Assembly (NCBI GenBank): GCA_027923505.1
Contig: BROI01000010.1
Span: 744,001 to 808,000 of the forward strand
Direction: 5' to 3'
Source: Mayamaea pseudoterrestris
Lineage: Eukaryota
Length of the DNA: 64,000 nucleotides
This document shows, piece after piece, positions 2,525 through 60,900 of this stretch (positions within the stretch are counted from its first letter, which is position 1; every line of letters begins with the position of its first letter). Below the pieces are notes generated by a model. The model worked only from the letters and a program-made list of their open reading frames with translations, searched no databases and was not told where the DNA came from. The translations under genes and the position numbers were made by a program.

Positions 2525-2608
2525 TGTCTCAGACCGGAGTCGAACCGATGCCCAACGAATTGGACTAGCACCTGAAGCTAGCGCCTTAGACCACTCGGCC
2601 ACTGAGAC
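2525..2608 (-). tRNA. tRNA-Leu(CAG)
   Basis: Reverse complement has acceptor stem GTCTCAG/CTGAGAC, D arm TGGCCGAGTGGTCTAAGGC, anticodon arm CTAGC-TTCAGGT-GCTAG, a long variable arm and T arm ATCGG-TTCGACT-CCGGT. Confidence 0.95.
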
Positions 2609-22216: not shown

Positions 22217-22747
22217 GTTGTTGCGCAAGTGGCCGGTTGCAATTATGATTGAAGAATTGTCGGGTGTCAGGTGCGGACGTACAATGATCTAGATATACAA
22301 AGGATCTTAAAATTCCGACATTTTAGAACCCTATCATCTCTATGATACCGGTACTATGTAGGAGTGCTCATTATCTAAGAGGGGCGTACGGTTAGAGTCG
22401 AGCAATGAGGAAGTTGCAAGTTTCACTGCCCGTCTTTCTACCACATGAAGCTTTCCCGTATATTTTCTTGTCACTAATTAAACGTGATATAACATTTTGT
22501 TGTTTAGCAAATGATCATGTTGCATGTATGGCTATGGGTGCCCATATTTCCAAACGATCCCTCGGCTAGCGCCTTTCGTTACCTAACCATAGCTGCAGGG
22601 TTTTGTCTTTCCGGTTCTTGATGAGTCGGAACGAGTGGTGGACGGTCGGTTGCAGCACACGCTCCGCAACCACGAACTTAAAATCAGGCCACAACAATAC
22701 AACACATCGACGATAACGACAGTAGCACCGACCTAATTACCTTCGTC

Positions 22748-23974
22748 ATGGCATGGGCTAGCAAGCTGGAAAGAAAACTCTTATCGTTAACAGAAGCATC
22801 GAGCCCCGAATCAATTGCCACCGTCGCAAAATGGATTTGCTTCAATCGAAAACAAGCGGCAAGCTTTTGTCAAGTTCTTAGCGGGACGCTTGCTGCATCA
22901 GATCGTCAAGTTCTCCTCCTTGAATTGATTAGTTTAGTCTTGCTGAACGACAAGGAAAGTAGTGCATGGGATCGAGGCGCAGATCTTCGTCGCGTCATGG
23001 GAGAGACCGTCCTCCTACCAAACATTGACAAGCTGAACGCTTCTTCGCGCGATAAGCTCCTCGGATTGACCGAAATTTGGGACGAGGCAAATGTCTTTGG
23101 AGGCCCTACAATTATTCATCAGATTCGCAAGCTCCAGCAATCAGGATCTTTGTCTGTTTTAGAGACGGGTGCCAGGGAACTTGACACCGAGACGAAACCT
23201 GCGGCTGCAGAATCTGCACATGATTTGCCCAAAAAACGACCATCGACTCCTACAAAGCTTTCCCGTGACGATGAGTATGATGCATTTATAACTCAAGAAG
23301 ACGATTTTGATTTGGCTCCACTGATGAAGAAACCTCGTGCGACGGCGTCGGCTTTAATGACTGCTGCCATAGACACTGTTCCCTACGATTTTGAATCCAC
23401 CGGCATTTCTTTTGTCAAAACGGAGCCATATCAATTACTAGAATCTTGCGGACAAGTTGCCAACCTTCAAATTGCTCGCGACATCCGAAATGACAGCGCC
23501 ATACAGCTTAATAGCCTCTTTACGGCTCTCCCTGAGGATGTGCGACGGTCCTGCGCCGAAGCTGCGGAAACTGACGGCGCATATGCGTTGGCGGACAATG
23601 ACACGGCTCGGGATTACAGCATTCGAATGAATCAGTCTCTGATTGATATGGACATGAATGAGCAACTTTTGAATTTATATCAGCTTCGAAAACTTATTGA
23701 GCAGCAGCAAGAAGCGAGGCAAAACGCGCGCAAACTTTTGCTGCAGTCACGCTGCCAGTTTGGGTCGGACGAAGCCGCCGCTGCCTTTTACACTGCTAAT
23801 CGAGGACAAGGCGAACTCGCGAGTCGGCGTCAAATTATGTTGGATGCCATGGAGTTAGAAGGTTGTGGTCTGGAGGAAAACGAACAGGCCGATGTCCAGT
23901 TAGATACCGCTAACCAAGACGATCTGGAACCACTGATTTGGTACAAGCCCGATGCATTTGTGGACGCAAGTTGA
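22748..23974 (+). CDS. CID (Pol II CTD-interacting) domain protein, RPRD/Rtt103-like
   Basis: The N-terminus LERKLLSLTEASSPESIATVAKWICFNRK...IWDEANVFG is typical of CID domains, followed by a coiled-coil region. Confidence 0.7.
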   Translation: MAWASKLERKLLSLTEASSPESIATVAKWICFNRKQAASFCQVLSGTLAASDRQVLLLELISLVLLNDKESSAWDRGADLRRVMGETVLLPNIDKLNASSRDKLLGLTEIWDEANVFGGPTIIHQIRKLQQSGSLSVLETGARELDTETKPAAAESAHDLPKKRPSTPTKLSRDDEYDAFITQEDDFDLAPLMKKPRATASALMTAAIDTVPYDFESTGISFVKTEPYQLLESCGQVANLQIARDIRNDSAIQLNSLFTALPEDVRRSCAEAAETDGAYALADNDTARDYSIRMNQSLIDMDMNEQLLNLYQLRKLIEQQQEARQNARKLLLQSRCQFGSDEAAAAFYTANRGQGELASRRQIMLDAMELEGCGLEENEQADVQLDTANQDDLEPLIWYKPDAFVDAS

Positions 23975-24017
23975 AGTTGGTGGCAGATTAGTCGGTACGT
24001 ACAAAAAAGTCCACGCC

Positions 24018-24119
24018 AATATTCCTGATGACGAACTTAGCTTTATAATCACAATCATTCATGCGTGTCAACTGACTGCTGGTGCAGCTTGATCTCAACA
24101 AAGCGAACTGAGGAATATT
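24018..24119 (+). ncRNA. Box C/D snoRNA, SNORD10/mgU6-77-like
   Basis: Terminal stem AATATTCC/GGAATATT. Box C TGATGA 24026-24031; D' CTGA 24072-24075; CTGC-TGGT-GCAG stem; C'-like TGATCT; box D CTGA 24108-24111. The guide CATTCATGCGTGTCA is complementary to conserved LSU rRNA UGACGCGCAUGAAUG and to U6 UGACACGCA. Confidence 0.88.
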
Positions 24120-24277
24120 TGTTGTTCTTTAGAGATGCTGAGAAGTGAATCTTCATAATCTCAAATGTATTGTTGTTCTACATTGATTCAGTGCACGAAC
24201 TGTTCTACAGTTCCACTAATTGCTCCGCCCTGCGTTGCCATCAGGTCAGTAATATTTACAATAAACGTGCTAGTGAG

Positions 24278-24386
24278 AGAGCCGTTGATGACGAAACATC
24301 ATAGACCTGTTCTTAACGCCACGGGGCACCGAAAGGTGTCCACCGGCCATGTGTCGACAAAATGATGCACCACCAGCTGAGGCTTT
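24278..24386 (+). ncRNA. Double-guide box C/D snoRNA (U33/snR55-like D guide + U25/snR56-like D' guide)
   Basis: Stem AGAGCC/GGCTTT. Box C TGATGA 24286-24291; box D CTGA 24377-24380. D guide ATGCACCACCA pairs with 18S UGGUGGUGCAU. Internal guide CATCATAGACCTGTT pairs with 18S AACAGGUCUGUGAUG, before a degenerate D' (CTTA). Confidence 0.88.
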
Positions 24387-24670
24387 TGCATCGATGTTTG
24401 CTGTCTATGCCTTTTTGCGAAAGAGACTTACACTATGAGTTTTATTTGTTTTCAAAGCTCCCAATCGCAAGTTCCGCCTCTAGCCAACACCACAGCGCGC
24501 TCTATGGGCGAACTCTGGATAATGTTTGCGACAGAGTCGTTTACATCTAACGTTTTATATATTATTTATTAGCGAGAACATAATTATTGATCGTTTTCGT
24601 CAGACTCTGCAACAGCATTAGCGCCGTAAACTTTAGTCCAGCATTGCGACAGATGCGCGATATAGGTGGG

Positions 24671-26575
24671 TCAATTATAAGCACCTGCGCCTGAATCCCA
24701 TTCAGCGTCATTCACGATGTCAAGGTTGATCGGCATATCCCAACTCGCGTCGAACTCAACTGTATCCGTTTCGCGCGACTGACCAGCTGCTTCCGCTTTT
24801 GCTGCTGCTCCGCGCATAGCATCACGTGCGTCCATGTGACGCTCGGCCATTTCCACGAGTTGGTCATTGTGTTCTTGTCGACCCTCGAGAGCTGCAATCA
24901 TATCATCTTCCAAAATCATATTCATACAAAGGTCCAGCTTGAGGTCGATATCATGCTCCCTTGCAGCAATCATCATGGCCGCTAACGCATCGGCCGCTCC
25001 ATGATCAAGCGAGCAATGACGAAGACCAAGCTGAATACTTAGTTCCCTTGTCGTGTGTCCGTGCTTGTCGAGTTCATCGAGAAATGCATTTGCCAATGCC
25101 TTGGCACCACATCGCCACGTGGGACTTGCTAAACCACCTGCAACTCTCATGGCGTCTTCCTCTTCATCATCGCTCTCACCGGACACTACTCCTAAGGCAG
25201 TGTCCATTCCAACTTCCTTGAAACCTTTCTTAAGAAAGCCCATCCCTTGCGACATGTACGACACAGCCGTTGCGCTAGCGTGGCTCTTGAGCCGACCGGC
25301 TGAATACTTTCCGCCATCTTTCTTAGACTTTCCAAGCAAAATGCCAATTGGATTGCCACTCAGATCAATTTCTAGGCGTCCACTATTGACGCACATCGCC
25401 TTGCCAATGGCCGCGGCTCCATCGGCTTGCACGTGACAACTTCGTAGTTCCAGATATCGCAGTTTACCAGTCGAAATCGCCTCCGCCAATCCGATTGCGC
25501 CTCTATCCCCAATTTTACCGTTTCCACTCAATATCAGCTTGCCTATACAGGGGCAGCTTGACTGCGCAATAACTCTTCCCAATGTCACGGCGCCGTTATC
25601 GGAAATTGCATTGGCGCCGAAATCTAATTCCTCGACGCAAAGTCGATTGTTCGCCTTCTCCATGGCCATGGCGAAAGCATCAACTCCAATGTCTTTCAAA
25701 CTGCAGCCACATAGATCAAGTCGTTGAAAAATAGGGTACTGCATTTTGTTCACTGTGTCCTTGGTGACGAGAATAGTTCGAATTGCAGCAGCCAAAGCTG
25801 ATAAGCCTGCGTCACCAACCTTCGAATTTCCCGAAAGGGAGAGCGAAAGTGGCTGAAACTGCAGCTCAGTCTTAGTCACGCCATCAAGTGATTCTTCGGT
25901 GTCATGTTTTGGATTTATATCGCAAAAGCTGTCGTTATTTGGACTGCTGACGCGATGCATTAGACCCTTGGCAATGGCGCGACAGACGGACGGTCCAATT
26001 CCTGACCTATCTAGTCGCAGTACCTTCGGACAAACTTCCACATTCCTTATGAGTAATTCGAGTGCCTGACAAAAGGCTTGCGATCCTGGTGCGTCATGTC
26101 CAAGGCGATTCCAGCCAATGTCAAGGACGTCAACCTTCTGGCGCCGGCGATGGATCCTGTTTGGACGTTCGGCTCCACCGTCATCATCGTTTTTGCTGCG
26201 TTTGCTCCTAGCGGATTGCGTAAGAATTTGATCTATCAGTTGGCTGACGCCTTGGGCTGTAAGCCGATTACAACGAGCCACGAGGTGGATGGGACCTGCG
26301 GCCATTGTAGCGTCATCCATCAAGTTTGTCAAATTATTGTCGCGCAGTGACGAAGAACTCACGTCAATCTCGACGATATGACTTGATTCATCTACACTCT
26401 GATCTTGTATAAGCTTATGAATTGTTTCGATAAGAACGTTCTCGCGCAAATGACTTGTGTAGGAAAGATCTATTTGTGTAGAGCTTGGCGGTGCGAATTG
26501 TTCTGTCTTGTAGTAAAATGCTGAAGCACCAACGGGCGACAAACAGATAAACACCAATGGCCGAACAAACTGCAT
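24671..26575 (-). CDS. Leucine-rich repeat (RNI-like) protein with predicted signal peptide
   Basis: Repeated L..LDL..N.IGD.GA..LA units; N-terminus MQFVRPLVFICLSPVGASAF. Confidence 0.8.
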   Translation of the reverse strand: MQFVRPLVFICLSPVGASAFYYKTEQFAPPSSTQIDLSYTSHLRENVLIETIHKLIQDQSVDESSHIVEIDVSSSSLRDNNLTNLMDDATMAAGPIHLVARCNRLTAQGVSQLIDQILTQSARSKRSKNDDDGGAERPNRIHRRRQKVDVLDIGWNRLGHDAPGSQAFCQALELLIRNVEVCPKVLRLDRSGIGPSVCRAIAKGLMHRVSSPNNDSFCDINPKHDTEESLDGVTKTELQFQPLSLSLSGNSKVGDAGLSALAAAIRTILVTKDTVNKMQYPIFQRLDLCGCSLKDIGVDAFAMAMEKANNRLCVEELDFGANAISDNGAVTLGRVIAQSSCPCIGKLILSGNGKIGDRGAIGLAEAISTGKLRYLELRSCHVQADGAAAIGKAMCVNSGRLEIDLSGNPIGILLGKSKKDGGKYSAGRLKSHASATAVSYMSQGMGFLKKGFKEVGMDTALGVVSGESDDEEEDAMRVAGGLASPTWRCGAKALANAFLDELDKHGHTTRELSIQLGLRHCSLDHGAADALAAMMIAAREHDIDLKLDLCMNMILEDDMIAALEGRQEHNDQLVEMAERHMDARDAMRGAAAKAEAAGQSRETDTVEFDASWDMPINLDIVNDAEWDSGAGAYN

Positions 26576-30266: not shown

Positions 30267-30340
30267 GCTCGTGTAGCTCAGTTGGTTAGAGCGTGGGTCT
30301 AATAAACCCAAGGTCGCCGGTTCGATCCCGGTCTCGAGTA
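30267..30340 (+). tRNA. tRNA-Ile(AAT)
   Basis: GCTCGTG-TAGCTCAGTTGGTTAGAGC; anticodon arm TGGGT-CTAATAA-ACCCA; T arm GCCGG-TTCGATC-CCGGT; 3' CTCGAGTA. Confidence 0.95.
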
Positions 30341-33539: not shown

Positions 33540-35702
33540 TTATTTGTTGTGCTTTGCCTTTAGGCTTTGGACAATCGCACTCAGGGCCTTGGCCCCAGAA
33601 GCATGCTTTACCAATTCGCAGGCAACATCAGGCGCCGCAGATTTTGACACAGACGGACGCCCCCGTTGCTTCTTGCGACGGCGAGATTGCTCCTTCAAGA
33701 TCTTCAGCATGCCTGCCGTCTTTTTAAAGTTGCTGTCTGTCTGATCAATTCCAAACTTATCATCCGCTCCATCTAAGACAGCCTGGAACCGACTATCACT
33801 AACATCAACGTCGAAAGCGGTGCCTACAACAGCATCGGCGCGTTCCATCTCCTTCCGTTTGCGAGACCCTTTTAAAGTTTTTCCTGCGTTCTTTTCTAGG
33901 CGCTGCAGCTCACGCATACTGAAGTCCGTTTGCGAGTCGTCGTTTTCCTCGCCTGCAACGAGCAACTCGAGAGCCGCTCGGTTATTCTCCGCGCCACTTT
34001 CTCGGCCATTATCATCACTGGCGCTGCCATCCGACGTCACGACGGTTCGTTTACCTCTTGATGTCAGCCGGCGCTCCTGGCGCTTCTTCTTCCTCTTCTC
34101 CTTATATTTCTCCCAAGGTGTCAGCTCTCCAGACACTTTTGAAGCAGCCAACTTCTCGTGTATCATCTCGGTCAAATCCCCTTTCGTAGTACCAGGAATA
34201 AACTTGACTTCCTTCTCGTATTGCACCGATTCGTGAAAACCTCCATCGTCATTTTTAGTTAAACCATAGTTTTCTCTTACACTGCAATCATTCGGATCCT
34301 CCAAATCGTCGCTGTCGCTATCCAGTCCAAGATTTTTGCGCAGTTGCATAGCCTTGTCACCATCTTCCTCCTCGTCACTAGATGCATCTGATGCCAAGTA
34401 GGCTTTTAAGTCTTCACTCTCGGCAATGGCACGCCAATGTTCGCCCGAGTTATACTTTGTTAAGGTTCGCTCACGATCTGGATCAGGCAAATCCCAGGTG
34501 CAAGTAACATTCGTCTGCTGTAGAGCCGCAACAATAAAGTCTGGAGGCGAATAATTGCTTGGAAGAGACGACGCTTCGTCTCGTAATAGACGGTCTGTAA
34601 TGATAGATTCCAAGTCAACTTCCGGAATTGCTCGTAGGTCAATTTCAGCCGATGAATGCTCAAACTCCATCCCATCGACTTCGCGATACGCCTTCTCGGC
34701 TGACTCGACGCTCGCAAATTCAGCAATCGCAAAGTAATATCGCAGTTTAGATGCCTCATAATTCCGAAGCTTCTCTCGGTCAAAATCAGACTCGACCTTT
34801 GCGGCCGCCGTAGGCCGAATGTCGTCGTATCCGTCGCTGCTTAAATCATCGTCGTCAGCAGCAGATTCGATCTCGTACCCAGCCCCTTCGTTCTCATTTT
34901 CTTCACTGGCTGCAGAAGTACTATTTTTCCAAACACCGGAAGGTCCAAATCGCTCCAGATCGGCAAGCTTCTCTTGACCAAAATCTGATACAAAAACGCT
35001 CACTTGACGTACACTGCCAGCTGGACAAAACGAGGAAAGGAGCGCGTATATATCGAGGGCGCGAACACTAGTCCAGTCCATATTTGTAACCGCAAGATAT
35101 CTCGTCGATTCCTCCGTGATTTCAATCTCCTGCTCATCATCGTTGCTCCTATCGAATACGCCGCCAGCATCCGCTTCGATCTGATCGGAGCCGCCATTAG
35201 AGCCATCATCGTCGCTCGAGGACGAGTCTGAATCTCCCGAGCTGTCATCATCGGACGATGACGACGATACATCAAGTTGTCCACGTGAAAGCGCCTTCAA
35301 ATATGCAATGCGGGAGGCAGATCCAGGCTTATCATCGTCGTCGGTCGATGCATCGTCTTCATTCTGATTTCGGCTGTATTTCTTGACTGTTTGTGTTTTC
35401 CTGTCTCTTAGATTGTCAAGATTATCTTGATCCACAACGGTATAAAAAGCACTGAGTTCTTCCTTTGCAGAATTGTTCTTTTTGTTCGCTTTGCGCCCAT
35501 ACTTGTCTTGGACCTGCAACTGGAAGCGGTCGTCCGTCAGCACCGAGGCGAAGCGCTCATCGAGAACCACCTTTGAGGATGCCTTGGCGGGAGCTCGAAA
35601 TTGCGGACCGGACGTGTCAAACCGTTTACTATCGACACTACTGGAGTCTTCATTATTGTCATTGCTGGACGGCGGCTTTGTTGTATTGGGTCGTTGCGCC
35701 AT
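33540..35702 (-). CDS. ESF1: Pre-rRNA-processing protein ESF1
   Basis: LDERFASV...DKYGR, TRYLAVTNMDW..VRA.D, LRNYEASKLRYYFAI, NUC153-like DSRFQAV...FGID.T.SNFKKT. Confidence 0.93.
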   Translation of the reverse strand: MAQRPNTTKPPSSNDNNEDSSSVDSKRFDTSGPQFRAPAKASSKVVLDERFASVLTDDRFQLQVQDKYGRKANKKNNSAKEELSAFYTVVDQDNLDNLRDRKTQTVKKYSRNQNEDDASTDDDDKPGSASRIAYLKALSRGQLDVSSSSSDDDSSGDSDSSSSDDDGSNGGSDQIEADAGGVFDRSNDDEQEIEITEESTRYLAVTNMDWTSVRALDIYALLSSFCPAGSVRQVSVFVSDFGQEKLADLERFGPSGVWKNSTSAASEENENEGAGYEIESAADDDDLSSDGYDDIRPTAAAKVESDFDREKLRNYEASKLRYYFAIAEFASVESAEKAYREVDGMEFEHSSAEIDLRAIPEVDLESIITDRLLRDEASSLPSNYSPPDFIVAALQQTNVTCTWDLPDPDRERTLTKYNSGEHWRAIAESEDLKAYLASDASSDEEEDGDKAMQLRKNLGLDSDSDDLEDPNDCSVRENYGLTKNDDGGFHESVQYEKEVKFIPGTTKGDLTEMIHEKLAASKVSGELTPWEKYKEKRKKKRQERRLTSRGKRTVVTSDGSASDDNGRESGAENNRAALELLVAGEENDDSQTDFSMRELQRLEKNAGKTLKGSRKRKEMERADAVVGTAFDVDVSDSRFQAVLDGADDKFGIDQTDSNFKKTAGMLKILKEQSRRRKKQRGRPSVSKSAAPDVACELVKHASGAKALSAIVQSLKAKHNK

Positions 35703-39367: not shown

Positions 39368-39449
39368 CGACATGAGCAGGATTCGAACCTACGAGGGAAA
39401 ATCCCAACAGATTTCGAGTCTGTCGCCTTAACCGCTCGGCCACCATGTC
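39368..39449 (-). tRNA. tRNA-Ser(CGA)
   Basis: Reverse complement GACATGG-TGGCCGAGCGGTTAAGGCG; anticodon arm ACAGA-CTCGAAA-TCTGT; long variable arm; GTAGG-TTCGAAT-CCTGC; TCATGTCG. Confidence 0.95.
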
Positions 39450-43656: not shown

Positions 43657-45372
43657 ATGGTAGAACTGCATTTCACATTTCACACATTAATCACACTATT
43701 TACTATTCCAAAACGCTTCACAGTCGAACACCAAGTGATGACAGACCACCAAGAGACGCATATAGACTCAAGAGTAATAGAGTCAGTCCAGCAGCGACGT
43801 TTTCGGCAGCGAAAACGGCCTCTGTCTCTTCACCATTCCAACGACAGTCTCGTCGTCACTGCAAAGGTTGTTCCGCTAGTGTTTCCTGACAACAATGATG
43901 ATGAATCCTCTGCTTGTCCACGCAGTTTGGTTCGCGTCGTTGAGCCATACCCATGGTCTTTTTCGACGCACGCCAAGCAGCGATGGATCGGCCGTCCACT
44001 TGTCCATGTATACTCGACCGACTTTGGCGCCTATCCTGCCTCATACTACGAAATGGCAATACTTCAGGGACGCATTCTTGTCAACGATACCAAAGTTGAT
44101 CCAAACTACTTGGTAAAGGATCGAGACGTTCTTTCGCACTGCGTCCACCGACATGAACCAGCCGTTGGCGTTTACAATGAAGACACCCTCGTTAATGTTG
44201 TACAGGAAACGGATCTGCTTCTTGTCGTCGACAAGCCACCAAACATGCCCATCCATCCTTGTGGAGCATATCACAAGAACACTCTTGTTGATATCTTGGA
44301 TACAACTCGAAACACTAAGCATTATACCATACATCGACTCGATCGACTTACCTCGGGATTGGTGCTTGTTGGCAAGACGAGCGAGGCAGCAAGAAAGTAT
44401 GTGTCAGTCATGCAGGAGCATCAAAGTCAACGAATCGATGAGAATGTAGTATCTTCGTGCGAAAAAATTTACTTGGCAAGAGTGAAAGGGCGGTTCGCGG
44501 CGAGCCTTCCCGATGGTCTGCCTCGCATTCGCCATGAGCAGCTACCAATCCGGGGAGAGTGGATGGGCAAGCAAGGGCGTGACCGCAACGCATATGGGTA
44601 CTGGCTATCCAATTTTGATGATGAGTTATGTACTCTATCGGTGCAACAGTTCGGTCAACAGGAGGGCTCGGTGGATGACTGGCTGAGATGTCTTGGAAGA
44701 AGATTCACTTCGGTCAGCAAAGAAATTACACCAGATGCCGGTTCACGTTATTGGTTCCATGTGGCATGTCCGATGCGAGTCGAGCAGCACAAGAATGGCG
44801 TCTGCGTATGCGGTTGTTTTCAATCACTCGATAATGATTCTTACAAGCGCACCGTCAAGTCAGCATCAACGTCCTTTGCATTGATTCACTACGACGGAGC
44901 TACCGACTCGACTCTCGTGCTATGCCGTCCGACGACGGGAAGGACCCATCAAATACGACTGCACTTGCAGCTTCTTGGCAATCCTATTGTTAACGACCCA
45001 AACTATGGCGGAAACATGTGGTGGAACAATCCGCGCGGCGAGAGTGGTGGCCGGCAAGCTCAGATTTTGCTTGAAGCGATGAATCGTGCCTCCACGTCGG
45101 TGCCGAGTGCATCGCACCATACACCAGCGACGCAGCAGGAGGTGGAGGAGCTCAATGTGCATTTACAATCGAGCGACGAGCCTTTAGATGACTTCATCCG
45201 GAGAACATGTGTTTGGTGCAAGCGGGGTCAAGGTAGCAACACTGATCGATCAGTAATGGAGTACATGTCGCGAAGCCCCATGATATACTTGCATGCGCTC
45301 CAGTACTCGATGCGGAATGCCGACGAAGTTGCAAGTTTTCGGACGGATTTTCCTGCATGGGCTAGATTCTAA
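43657..45372 (+). CDS. RluA-family pseudouridine synthase (RIB2/PUS9/RPUSD2-like)
   Basis: VVDKPPNMPIHPCG, HRLDRLTSG (catalytic Asp), TGRTHQIRLHL, IYLHA. Start may be 43738. Confidence 0.93.
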   Translation: MVELHFTFHTLITLFTIPKRFTVEHQVMTDHQETHIDSRVIESVQQRRFRQRKRPLSLHHSNDSLVVTAKVVPLVFPDNNDDESSACPRSLVRVVEPYPWSFSTHAKQRWIGRPLVHVYSTDFGAYPASYYEMAILQGRILVNDTKVDPNYLVKDRDVLSHCVHRHEPAVGVYNEDTLVNVVQETDLLLVVDKPPNMPIHPCGAYHKNTLVDILDTTRNTKHYTIHRLDRLTSGLVLVGKTSEAARKYVSVMQEHQSQRIDENVVSSCEKIYLARVKGRFAASLPDGLPRIRHEQLPIRGEWMGKQGRDRNAYGYWLSNFDDELCTLSVQQFGQQEGSVDDWLRCLGRRFTSVSKEITPDAGSRYWFHVACPMRVEQHKNGVCVCGCFQSLDNDSYKRTVKSASTSFALIHYDGATDSTLVLCRPTTGRTHQIRLHLQLLGNPIVNDPNYGGNMWWNNPRGESGGRQAQILLEAMNRASTSVPSASHHTPATQQEVEELNVHLQSSDEPLDDFIRRTCVWCKRGQGSNTDRSVMEYMSRSPMIYLHALQYSMRNADEVASFRTDFPAWARF

Positions 45373-57743: not shown

Positions 57744-58973
57744 TTATCCAGTGTAGCGAAGCAAGAGTCCGTTGCTGCCTAGCGCCCAACCCATGTTGCC
57801 ATACTCGGGGAAGAACTTGACGTTGTACAAGTTGCCTGGAATATCATTGGCGCTGGAATCAAATTTGAACTTTTTGCCTCCGTCAAAGCTTACGAACATG
57901 ACATTGGATCCACCAACGGCCCACACCTCATTATCCGCTCGCCAAGCAAGGTCAGTAATACCGTATCCACCCGTTTTAATGTCGGCTTCCACAAAGTCGA
58001 ACGCATCCTGCGTCAAATCAGGCGTTTCCTTGCTTATAAACACCTTACCGCCGTTCAAAGTCATCCAGAGCCCCTTGTTGATCTTGCCTTCGACGAAACC
58101 CATATTTTGGATCCGACGAGGAGTGCCACGATTGTGTGGAATCCAGAAATCCTGGCCTGGTTCCCACGTAAGGAAAAAGTTGCCGCGACTTGATACGGCC
58201 AGGTACGCACCCTTGTCATCGCGCACTTGGTTGATGATGCTTCCGGTAAAGTATGAAGCTCCACTGACACCACTACTACTGATACGATTGAGTGTAGCGT
58301 CAATAGTTTCCTTTACTTGTGCCTTCCAGTTGCGTCCCGCATTTTCGGTCACGTATACAGCTCCGCTGCTAGTGGTCATTTCCGCCTTGCTTGGACCAAG
58401 TGCGAAGATGGAGGATGGCTCACCTGGAAGCTTGGGTGAAAGGGGAATGCGCTCCCATGACTTGCCGCCATCAGCCGTGTGCAGCATGAGTGTTGGCTTG
58501 CCGAGCACCCATCCTTCATTGCCGGTGAAGGAAACAATCTGGAATCTATAAGTGATCTCTTCCTCCGCGTCAAGGTTAGAAAATGAACGAGCTTCCCATG
58601 TCTTTCCTCCGTCCGTTGTCTCGGCAAATGAGCCACGAGCACCAACAATGTATCCATGCGTGGGGCTGTTAAAATCAATGTCGTAAACAGTGTCTTCAAA
58701 CGGCAATGAAACTTGCGTCCATCGCTTCTCTGGCGCAGCTTCAACTGAAGCTGGAAGACCTCCTGTCGCTGTCGCAATGGATACTGCCGCTGCAGCAGTT
58801 GCTGAGTTGCCAATGAAGGCTCTCCTGTCTTCGACTCCGTCGTTTCTTGACATGAGGAGTTTTGACGGCAAAATGCATGTTGATGTCTTGGATGCCGATG
58901 GAATAAGGTGTCTTGGCGCAAAGGCAGTCACGCTGCCGACTGCAAGAACAAAACAAGCGCTCCTCAGATTCAT
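57744..58973 (-). CDS. HCF136: Photosystem II assembly factor HCF136/Ycf48
   Basis: Tripartite targeting: signal peptide, VTA-FAP, DRRAF...VEA. BNR repeats T.DGGK.W; ISSSGVSGASYFTG; AVSSRGNFFLTWEPGQ..W.PHNR...RRIQNMG. Confidence 0.95.
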   Translation of the reverse strand: MNLRSACFVLAVGSVTAFAPRHLIPSASKTSTCILPSKLLMSRNDGVEDRRAFIGNSATAAAAVSIATATGGLPASVEAAPEKRWTQVSLPFEDTVYDIDFNSPTHGYIVGARGSFAETTDGGKTWEARSFSNLDAEEEITYRFQIVSFTGNEGWVLGKPTLMLHTADGGKSWERIPLSPKLPGEPSSIFALGPSKAEMTTSSGAVYVTENAGRNWKAQVKETIDATLNRISSSGVSGASYFTGSIINQVRDDKGAYLAVSSRGNFFLTWEPGQDFWIPHNRGTPRRIQNMGFVEGKINKGLWMTLNGGKVFISKETPDLTQDAFDFVEADIKTGGYGITDLAWRADNEVWAVGGSNVMFVSFDGGKKFKFDSSANDIPGNLYNVKFFPEYGNMGWALGSNGLLLRYTG

Positions 58974-59286
58974 CTTGCTAGCTTTGATTAACGTACAGTA
59001 TTGTATGTAGATGCAACCAGGGCCAAAATAATGTATGTAATGATGATTCACATCACCATCGTCAGGTCCAAATCCTTGCTCTCAAAGATCGCCCACACCG
59101 ACATGGCATACACTCTGACTCACAGTCGTACGTCAGTGCGTCAGAACCGCTACGACGACTTGGAAACCACCGCGACATAATTGCCGTGCATTAATCCATC
59201 ACCATGGAAGCGTGACAATCAGCCTACTACTCCTACCGGTAACAATCATTCAATAATATCATCTGTTACGCTTGTTTTTTGAACGA

Positions 59287-60900
59287 ATGAGGCATGCATT
59301 GCATTCGACAAGCAAATATTTGAAGTTTGACATTGTTGGAAGAAAGCGATTACAGCGCATACTACCTTGGCCTTGGTTCACGACGGTGTCTCGCATACTA
59401 ATGCTTCAACTACTAGTTACTGTCAAGGCTTTTGCTGGACGACGGACATGCGCCGCTTCCGTGCACAGAATGTCGTTGTCGTCGATAAATCTATCGTATA
59501 CCGGTGATACTGATTTGAATATCGCTCCGAGCACTGCATACCAACGTCGAATGCGACTGCTCCAAGATTCATCGAAACTTTCACTTGCGCCCATGATGGA
59601 CTACACGGATCGACATTTCCGCTATTTAGTACGTCTCATCAGTCAAAGGACTCTTGTCTACACTGAAATGGTTGCTGCCAATGCAATTGCACACGAGCGA
59701 AGGGAAGCCATGGAAAAGAAACGGTTTGAACACCCCAATCGTCCCGAAAGTCGTAGTTCCTACGACGACCAATTTCTTCAACGATACCTTTCACAGGCAC
59801 CTTTTGGAGAAGGACCATCGGTTTTGCAGCTCGGCGGATCAAGTCCAGTACAGCTCTTTGAGTCGGCGCAAGCAGTCATGGACATGGAAGATCGAGGTTA
59901 CTGCAACTATACAGCCATAAATTTGAATTGCGGTTGTCCAAGTCCAAAAGTGGCTGGCAAGGGATCCTTTGGGGCATCTCTTATGGATGATGCCAACCTT
60001 GTGGCGCAGCTGACAAGCGCCATGTATCAGGGCTGCGACGGCCGCATGCCAATCACCGTCAAGTGCCGGATTGGGACGGAGACGCAGTCTCCCTACACGC
60101 ACCTTTCGTACGTTCAAACAGATCCAGAACAAGAGTACCGCAAGCTTGCCAACTTTATCAGAACAGTGGCACGCAACGGCGTCGTTACGGACTTTCAGGT
60201 TCATGCGCGCATTGCCGTTCTTTCAAAATCCTTCTCGCCGGCCGACAATCGGAAAGTGCCGCCACTGAAATACGATTTGGTGAGACGGCTGGTACAAGAT
60301 TTCCCAGAATTGACATTTAGCTTGAATGGCGGTATTGACAGTATCTCACAGGCGCTGAATGAGTTTCAACGTTGCCCTGGCTTGATGGGTGTCATGGTGG
60401 GGCGTGCCTTTGCTGCATCGCCCTGGAATTTTGCCATGGCCGATCAGCTGATGTATGGAGACAATGGTGCGAGCGACGAGCAACATCGACCAATGAATCG
60501 TTTGCAGATACTCGAGGCGTATGGGAAGCACGCCGACTATGAAGAGTCGATATGGGATCCTGTCAAAATTCGTCGGTTCATTGTCAAGGCTATCACGCCC
60601 TTGTTCGCGGGTGAACCAAATGCAAAGAAATACCGCATTGCTTTGGAAAGGGTAGCTGGCTCTGCCAAGGCGCTACACTTGCAAGGCAAGACTACAAACT
60701 CTCAGCCGCCACTGTCGGAACTCATATTGACGACAGCCATGGAACACTTGACGGACGAGACCTTGTTACGATCGCCTCAGGAGTCGTATGAGCGGTTGCT
60801 CTTTGAGGATGGCAAGCAACTAACGGGTATCGCCAGCTCGATGCATGCCACATCGGAGTGGCAAGACGAAAGAAAAAATATATGCAACAACTCTGATTAA
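59287..60900 (+). CDS. tRNA-dihydrouridine synthase, DusA-like
   Basis: SLAPMMDYTDRHFRYLVRLIS...YTEMV, LQLGGS, INLNCGCPS.KV, VKCRIG, VHAR, NR.VPPLKY, NGGI, VMVGRA. Start is 59287 or 59401. Confidence 0.92.
   Translation: MRHALHSTSKYLKFDIVGRKRLQRILPWPWFTTVSRILMLQLLVTVKAFAGRRTCAASVHRMSLSSINLSYTGDTDLNIAPSTAYQRRMRLLQDSSKLSLAPMMDYTDRHFRYLVRLISQRTLVYTEMVAANAIAHERREAMEKKRFEHPNRPESRSSYDDQFLQRYLSQAPFGEGPSVLQLGGSSPVQLFESAQAVMDMEDRGYCNYTAINLNCGCPSPKVAGKGSFGASLMDDANLVAQLTSAMYQGCDGRMPITVKCRIGTETQSPYTHLSYVQTDPEQEYRKLANFIRTVARNGVVTDFQVHARIAVLSKSFSPADNRKVPPLKYDLVRRLVQDFPELTFSLNGGIDSISQALNEFQRCPGLMGVMVGRAFAASPWNFAMADQLMYGDNGASDEQHRPMNRLQILEAYGKHADYEESIWDPVKIRRFIVKAITPLFAGEPNAKKYRIALERVAGSAKALHLQGKTTNSQPPLSELILTTAMEHLTDETLLRSPQESYERLLFEDGKQLTGIASSMHATSEWQDERKNICNNSD

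Follow-up and report, generated by a model that had tools for sequence, protein, structure and literature searches.

A probable intron-encoded box C/D snoRNA of a diatom with U33/snR55-type and U25/snR56-type 18S guides on a single RNA

Two nucleotides of 18S rRNA, a uridine and a guanosine, are given in PMC8817022 as methylation sites conserved in yeast, human, Arabidopsis, and Dictyostelium. According to Table 1 of that paper, the uridine is Um1269 in yeast (guided by snR55), Um1326 in human (U33), Um1270 in Arabidopsis (AtsnoR34), and Um1264 in Dictyostelium (CD29), and the guanosine is Gm1428 (snR56), Gm1490 (U25), Gm1431 (AtsnoR19), and Gm1506 (CD1), respectively. The two sites are thus served by separate snoRNAs in each of these four organisms. 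Separate RNAs are likewise described for Plasmodium (PFS1 and PFS10; PMC2656528) and for Neurospora, where CD34 serves one site and CD19 together with CD41 the other (PMC2780460). The U33/snR55 and U25/snR56 guide families are placed among the deeply conserved ones in the relevant part of PMC3511168.

The U25/snR56-type guide is found with different partners in different lineages. Neurospora crassa CD41 is a double-guide intronic snoRNA with a snR56/U25-type D' guide, and its other guide targets 26S rRNA (U49 type), which indicates that the snR56/U25-type guide re-pairs between lineages (PMC2780460). Dictyostelium DdR1 (RF01559) is presumably the CD1 of PMC8817022, where the DdR-x RNAs are renamed CDx; it is a dual-guide RNA in which the same guide is joined to another 18S guide, of the U61 type. 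Guide re-pairing between lineages is common and routine. Both yeast RNAs also have a further property: in the sections of van Nues et al. 2011 that concern them, snR55 and snR56 are among eleven yeast snoRNAs with complementarity flanking the methylation site, this extra pairing aids methylation, its overlap with guide targets is discussed, and divergent C'/D' motifs supported methylation (PMC3116282).

Here we describe an element on the + strand of a 64,000-nt diatom window, by which we mean the whole stretch of DNA analysed; all coordinates are positions in this window. Its parts, within 24277-24387, are as follows, with the basis of each assignment in parentheses.

24277-24283, + strand: terminal stem, 5' strand, GAGAGCC (stem scan and folding)
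24285-24291, + strand: C box TTGATGA, core TGATGA at 24286-24291, with T at the R position of RUGAUGA (sequence)
24297-24311, + strand: D' guide CATCATAGACCTGTT, antisense to 18S AACAGGTCTGTGATG, fifth base C24307
24312-24315, + strand: D' box CTTA, degenerate (sequence)
24324-24341, + strand: internal hairpin GGGCACC/GAAA/GGTGTCC, 7 bp with one G-U (sequence and folding)
24344-24351, + strand: accessory antisense element CGGCCATG, which pairs with 18S CATGGCCG, the segment immediately 3' of the D-guide target
24349-24357, + strand: alternative candidate C' box ATGTGTCGA, predicted from consensus lines and alignment, located where SNORD33-like RNAs have their C' box
24363-24368, + strand: candidate C' box TGATGC, overlapping the D guide (predicted from sequence)
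24365-24376, + strand: D guide ATGCACCACCAG, antisense to 18S GTGGTGGTGCAT, fifth base A24372
24377-24380, + strand: D box CTGA (sequence)
24381-24387, + strand: terminal stem, 3' strand, GGCTTTT (stem scan and folding)

The D guide with its CTGA, the D' guide with its CTTA, the hairpin, and CGGCCATG, as reported in an initial annotation of this DNA, are all present on the + strand where that annotation placed them. The element has the C box near its 5' end, the D box near its 3' end, and a terminal stem, as box C/D snoRNAs do, and it carries two antisense stretches of the class type, each at least about 10 bases long, ending at the D or D' box and placing its target nucleotide opposite the fifth base in the 18S fragment used for comparison. 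The terminal stem (24277-24283 with 24381-24387) has 7 bp, 5 of them Watson-Crick, and is followed by three unpaired bases (24284-24286) before the GA of the C box, a spacing that we take to be K-turn geometry. Both strands of the window were scanned for TGATGA...CTGA enclosed by a stem of 4 bp or more; among the 17 rows returned, a stem of at least 7 bp with at least 5 Watson-Crick pairs around about 100 nt was present only in this element and in a neighbour at 24018-24119. Folding keeps the terminal stem and the hairpin, and the fold as a whole is unexceptional (MFE -33.3 kcal/mol, z -1.86). We judge the element to be very probably a genuine box C/D snoRNA, with a predicted length of about 105-111 nt.

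Across the whole window, the Rfam gathering thresholds returned three tRNAs and no snoRNA. The tRNA genes lie at 2525-2608 (- strand), 30267-30340 (+ strand), and 39368-39449 (- strand), and two of them have long variable arms. A cmscan comparison, which the initial annotation had proposed as a check, therefore placed the element in no family at threshold: snosnR55 scored 15.4 bits against a threshold of 50 (E 3.7) and DdR1 (RF01559) 12.9 bits against 70 (E 8.6), and SNORD25 (RF00054) and snR56 (RF01188) gave no match in 24150-24500 at E up to 10, in a permissive scan that suppressed overlapping matches of the same clan. The same scan did support the predicted registers. The D guide and D box align column for column and without a gap to the Rfam snR55 consensus, and the 5' half of the element, that is, C box, spacer, guide (..AGACCUG..), and D' box, aligns without a gap and in the same register to the DdR1 consensus. 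Because both alignments to the consensus lines are gapless, the guide registers are those of the families. Since no Rfam family reaches its threshold, we assign the element to the box C/D class and regard it as corresponding to U33/snR55 and U25/snR56 at the level of its guides, not as a scored member of either family. Two minus-strand matches over 24241-24307, SNORD21 (16.2 bits, E 3.8) and sn668 (14.8 bits, E 4), are at chance level and cross a 5' splice site, and were rejected.

Pairing with 18S rRNA was scored against the 912-nt 18S part of an rDNA fragment, L001, which is another eukaryote's and not the diatom's own 18S. A search of viral contigs with a conserved 18S motif had returned two misfiled eukaryotic rDNA fragments, of which L001 is one; it scores 534 bits on SSU_rRNA_eukarya (RF01960). 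Its 18S-like stretch, at 1775-2686, spans Rfam model positions 1-1831 in 912 bases and has an AT-rich insertion, and is probably a chimeric or degenerate rDNA copy; we used only its two conserved target segments. Against AACAGGTCTGTGATG, the D' guide forms 15 of 15 possible pairs (14 Watson-Crick and one G-U), a result matched by none of 2000 shuffles. The D guide forms 11 of 12 pairs with GTGGTGGTGCAT (matched by 5 of 2000 shuffles), and the one mismatch, in both 18S fragments compared, is the base adjacent to the D box, G24376. C24307, the fifth base upstream of the D' box, faces the G of AACAG in the L001 18S, and A24372, the fifth base upstream of the D box, faces the second U of GTGGT, so the two guides share the same +5 register, as the initial annotation had said. 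Its assignment of the D guide to the U33/snR55 type agrees with the snR55 alignment, with the U in GTGGT, and with the sites in Table 1 of PMC8817022; likewise, the assignment of the D' guide to the U25/snR56 type is borne out by the complete pairing, the DdR1 register, the G in AACAG, and the same table, which also has the two guides on separate RNAs in yeast and human. We therefore describe the D guide as the predicted guide for the 18S uridine equivalent to yeast U1269/human U1326, and the D' guide as the predicted guide for the 18S guanosine equivalent to yeast G1428/human G1490.

The accessory element pairs with CATGGCCG of L001 at 8 of 8 positions (matched by 13 of 2000 shuffles). Its target overlaps that of the 12-base D guide by 3 bases and is exactly contiguous with the target of a 9-base guide, 24368-24376. 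The complementarity that the initial annotation had noted is thus real and adjoins the D-guide target, but it is not new, as extra pairing by snR55 and snR56 is part of the set in PMC3116282. Like the RNAs of that set, the diatom RNA can pair with rRNA beside the methylation site through an internal element located between D' and C', and the element is kept in the one relative compared. Unlike them, the diatom element is 8 bases long and, if TGATG is the C' box, would continue the guide helix without overlap, with C' looped out. In the consensus lines of the U33 clan (CL00054) we read a corresponding motif as GCCauGG in snR55 and ACcAUGA in SNORD33. Because a matching motif is present in both of these lines and the extra pairing of snR55 has been in the literature since 2011, we regard the accessory element as a retained family trait and not as a diatom invention.

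In other respects the element both resembles and departs from its closest counterparts. With U33/SNORD33, snR55, and AtsnoR34 it shares the predicted 18S uridine target, the gapless D guide and D box, and a short element complementary to 18S bases adjoining the target, at a similar distance upstream of the guide; it is also intron-located, and U33/snR55 genes are intron-encoded in human and Neurospora (PMC2656528, PMC2780460). It differs from that clan in its low score (15.4 bits versus 50), in a second guide from another family, in an inserted GAAA hairpin, and in a C'-like TGATG abutting the guide. With U25/SNORD25, snR56, and AtsnoR19 (clan CL00049) it shares the predicted 18S guanosine target, and like CD19 and CD41 of Neurospora (PMC2780460) it carries this guide on the D' side, but it has no Rfam match to that clan at E up to 10, its D' box is CTTA, and its 3' half is U33-type. 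The partner guide also sets it apart from the two dual-guide RNAs: in CD41 the partner targets 26S rRNA and the snR55-type guide is separate, on CD34, and in DdR1, presumably CD1, the partner is U61-type according to PMC8817022 and the D' box is CUGA.

The C'/D' side is the less regular part of the element. In the D' box, CTTA, the G of the CUGA consensus is missing. The first three bases of the D guide (ATG) fall within the C'-like TGATGC, and this candidate C' box, if used, leaves only 8-9 guide bases; the other candidate, ATGTGTCGA, lacks GA and sits where relatives have AUGAG..GA. With TGATGC and CTTA, all K-loop contacts except one would presumably be possible.

The element lies downstream of a protein-coding ORF, in an intron of its 3'UTR, and the preceding intron holds the neighbouring snoRNA candidate. 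The features are as follows.

22748-23974, + strand: host coding region, an ORF of 408 aa in a single exon, encoding a CID (Pol II CTD-interacting) domain (PF04818, 39.6 bits)
23995-24191, + strand: 3'UTR intron A, GT..AG, 197 nt, holding the neighbouring snoRNA; X5 record 7 joins 23993 to 24191 (cut +1); 5' splice site GTACGT
24018-24119, + strand: neighbouring box C/D snoRNA candidate, with perfect 8-bp stem AATATTCC/GGAATATT, C box 24026-24031, internal CTGA 24072-24075, and D box 24108-24111
24245-24457, + strand: 3'UTR intron B, GT..AG, 213 nt, holding the element; X5 record 7 joins 24242 to 24456 (cut +2); CAG|GTCAGT and AAAG|CT

Homologues of the host ORF cover 98-100% of its length, and its stop codon is at 23972-23974. 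The introns were located with contigs of two runs, X4 and X5, aligned to 22700-25200. X5 record 7 matches the window in three blocks, 23735-23993, 24191-24242, and 24456-24545, and because the joints in the X4 and X5 contigs are GT..AG, we take these contigs to derive from spliced RNA. Their cover has gaps over the snoRNA bodies, which has no bearing either way on the snoRNAs. In intron B, 32 nt separate the 5' splice site from the element and 70 nt separate the element from the 3' splice site; the corresponding distance from the neighbour to the acceptor of intron A is 72 nt. There is thus one snoRNA per 3'UTR intron, the neighbour lying about 160 nt upstream of the element on the same strand, and both candidates sit between convergent ORFs. 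By motif reading, CTTAC at 24427-24431 would place the branch A 43 nt after the snoRNA.

In the host mRNA (window 23975-24545, + strand), two introns follow the stop codon, and the second exon junction is about 73 nt past the stop in the spliced RNA. A transcript with this layout is usually a target of nonsense-mediated decay, as are those of vertebrate snoRNA host genes. Proteins of the CID-domain family are connected with Pol II termination. In X4 record 3, an alternative acceptor, GTGCAG|C, is used within the neighbouring snoRNA (joint 23993 to 24087), so that only 93 nt are skipped and the remainder of intron A is retained. As for targets of the neighbour, it has no Watson-Crick complement of at least 8 bases in the partial 18S of L001, and a scan of viral contigs for large-subunit rDNA that might contain its target gave 85 loci, none of which was rDNA by the context filter. 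Elsewhere in the same 64 kb are ORFs with RNA-maturation domains, namely ESF1 RRM/NUC153 (33540-35702, - strand), pseudouridine synthase (43657-45372, + strand), and dihydrouridine synthase (59272-60900, + strand), with no link to the snoRNAs shown, and a Ycf48-like ORF (57744-59051) whose named matches are only diatom proteins at 73-80% identity, e.g., from Chaetoceros, and which therefore identifies the window as diatom DNA.

Conservation was assessed with run X6, from another study, in which the matches of three short contigs are confined to part of the CID ORF and the bodies of the two snoRNAs. Record 11 matches the element over 24275-24380 only, with 9 differences in 106 bases and no gap (about 91% identical), and its flanks of 200 and 78 bases do not match the window. 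Record 10 behaves in the same way for the neighbouring snoRNA, matching 24022-24113 only (3 differences, 1 gap; likewise about 91% identical) between unmatched flanks. The 30 bases before the X6 match to the element begin with GTTAGT, where the window has the 5' splice site GTCAGT, which suggests that the snoRNA occupies the same intronic position in the X6 relative. Four differences within the element are listed, at 24320 (C>T), 24323 (G>A), 24342 (A>G), and 24350 (T>A). The stretch 24306-24319, which includes the last bases of the D' guide and CTTA, is free of listed differences, as is the hairpin stem. The other 5 of the 9 differences fall, at unlisted positions, in 24275-24304 and 24351-24380, stretches that hold the boxes, parts of both guides, and the C' candidate. 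The initial annotation had made the retention of the D' guide and its degenerate box in relatives decisive for its proposal; in X6, CTTA and the adjoining guide bases are free of listed changes, and the 5' part of the D' guide lies in one of the stretches with unlisted positions. In the accessory element, 7 of 8 bases are unchanged, the exception being T24350>A. Its conservation across a very large evolutionary distance, from diatom to the snR55 family, supports the snR55-type accessory pairing being ancient. No covariation was seen in the hairpin, for which there is one relative and no change within the stem. At the foot of the hairpin, the facing bases 24323 and 24342 are a G and an A in the window and the reverse in X6, so that a purine-purine mismatch is kept; this swap is a single instance and may have arisen by chance. 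A further run, X2, matches almost perfectly throughout this stretch and may be where the DNA itself comes from, and it is therefore not counted as independent support.

We consider it rather probable that the element is an intron-encoded box C/D snoRNA with both guides acting and with CGGCCATG aiding the D guide. The RNA would be released by splicing of 3'UTR intron B of the CID-domain gene, trimmed back to its terminal stem, and packaged with the usual core proteins of the class (fibrillarin, Nop56, Nop58, and Snu13), to accumulate as a mature RNA. The D guide would then direct 2'-O-methylation of the uridine equivalent to yeast U1269/human U1326, helped by pairing of CGGCCATG with the adjoining 18S bases, and the D' guide would direct methylation of the guanosine equivalent to yeast G1428/human G1490.

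The most serious competing explanation is that the snoRNA is real and only its U33/snR55-type D guide is active, the D' stretch being a decaying or inactive remnant whose CTTA could not take part in a working C'/D' motif, and the G site being methylated through a separate U25-like snoRNA from elsewhere in the genome. The irregularities of the C'/D' side point this way, as CTTA is without the consensus G and neither C' candidate is clean, one overlapping the D guide and the other being without GA. So does the use of a separate RNA for the G site in all six organisms compared, and in the yeast experiments described in PMC3116282 the 'inactive' C'/D' motif of snR39 directed no methylation. However, most of the divergent C'/D' motifs tested in the same work were active, and a dead guide should decay, yet all 15 pairs of this D' guide are intact and correctly placed in register. 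Moreover, the differences listed for X6 spare CTTA and the guide bases beside it, despite intron flanks that cannot be aligned. We therefore regard loss of the D' activity as rather unlikely, and activity of both guides as somewhat probable on the present sequence comparisons.

The extent of the complementarity to 18S, with three segments of 15, 9-12, and 8 bases totalling more than 30 bp, would also suit an RNA that acts mainly as a tether or chaperone, holding two distant segments of the 18S 3' major domain during folding, with methylation secondary or absent. The accessory element and a short guide together cover 17 contiguous target bases, exceeding the 10 bp that PMC8162545, in the passage concerned, gives as fitting the C/D particle. 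Nevertheless, both guides stand in exact fifth-base register with known conserved methylation sites, and the extra pairing treated in PMC3116282 was shown to aid methylation and not to replace it, making a primarily tethering role very improbable. That there is no functional RNA at all, the motifs and complementarities having arisen in the intron by chance, could be argued from the missing Rfam family at threshold; against it, the boxes, the stem, two in-register guides, the intron position, a snoRNA in the preceding intron, and selective conservation of the snoRNA bodies all coincide, and we give this explanation almost no weight.

The two guide types are carried on separate RNAs in six organisms, and the predicted presence of U33/snR55-type and U25/snR56-type guides on one RNA is therefore a new combination. 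The initial annotation had gone further in calling it lineage-specific; lineage specificity is not established by comparison with one relative. As guide re-pairing between lineages is routine, the element represents ordinary variation. A metagenome scan with a query of C box, a 50-80 base gap, D guide, and D box returned 60 loci, mostly noise, among which the architecture of the element was found in none, and no further relative was recovered. GACCTG was present in 3 of the 60 (one repeated sequence, not beside a box) and GGCCA in 2. Eight of these loci were passed through cmscan, giving five SNORD33 matches below threshold (24.4-36.7 bits versus 44) and none for L035, L038, and L005; the SNORD33-like loci have the U33-type guide with other 5' halves. 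A scan of viral contigs for both guides together gave no loci. The metagenome loci contain other RNA genes as well. In L003, from a marine metagenome eukaryote, a SNORD33-like snoRNA (393-485; 36.7 bits versus 44) is followed, about 190 nt downstream, by an RNase MRP RNA gene (671-879; about 64 bits versus 50), and L037, from a marine metagenome, has the same arrangement and spacing (49-141, 36.2 bits versus 44; 326-535, about 64 versus 50). In L055, a SNORD33-like snoRNA (396-478; 29.8 bits) is about 250 nt upstream of a snR61-family snoRNA (724-800; 50.9 bits versus 45), forming a snoRNA cluster.

A more ambitious proposal, which we think unlikely, is that diatoms or a subgroup of them merged the U33- and U25-type guides and that the D-side pairing is split around a looped-out C' box, the 9-base guide and the 8-base accessory element together forming 17 contiguous pairs. 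If this were true, K-loop formation by the C' box would alternate with extended rRNA pairing, and the RNA would clamp together two segments that lie far apart in the 3' major domain of 18S, methylating them in an ordered way.

The understanding of snoRNAs in general is unchanged by this element, which is of use mainly for the annotation of diatom snoRNAs. Our literature search found no diatom snoRNA catalogue; PMC7671301 does not contain the names U33, U25, snoR34, snoR19, snR55, or snR56, and PMC4247016 mentions a snoRNA only as a qPCR reference. For this reason, the element and its neighbour would be useful seed annotations for diatom snoRNAs. They provide an example of one snoRNA per 3'UTR intron with a vertebrate-like spacing of about 70 nt to the acceptor, and the element itself appears to be a case of two very old 18S guides re-paired onto one RNA.
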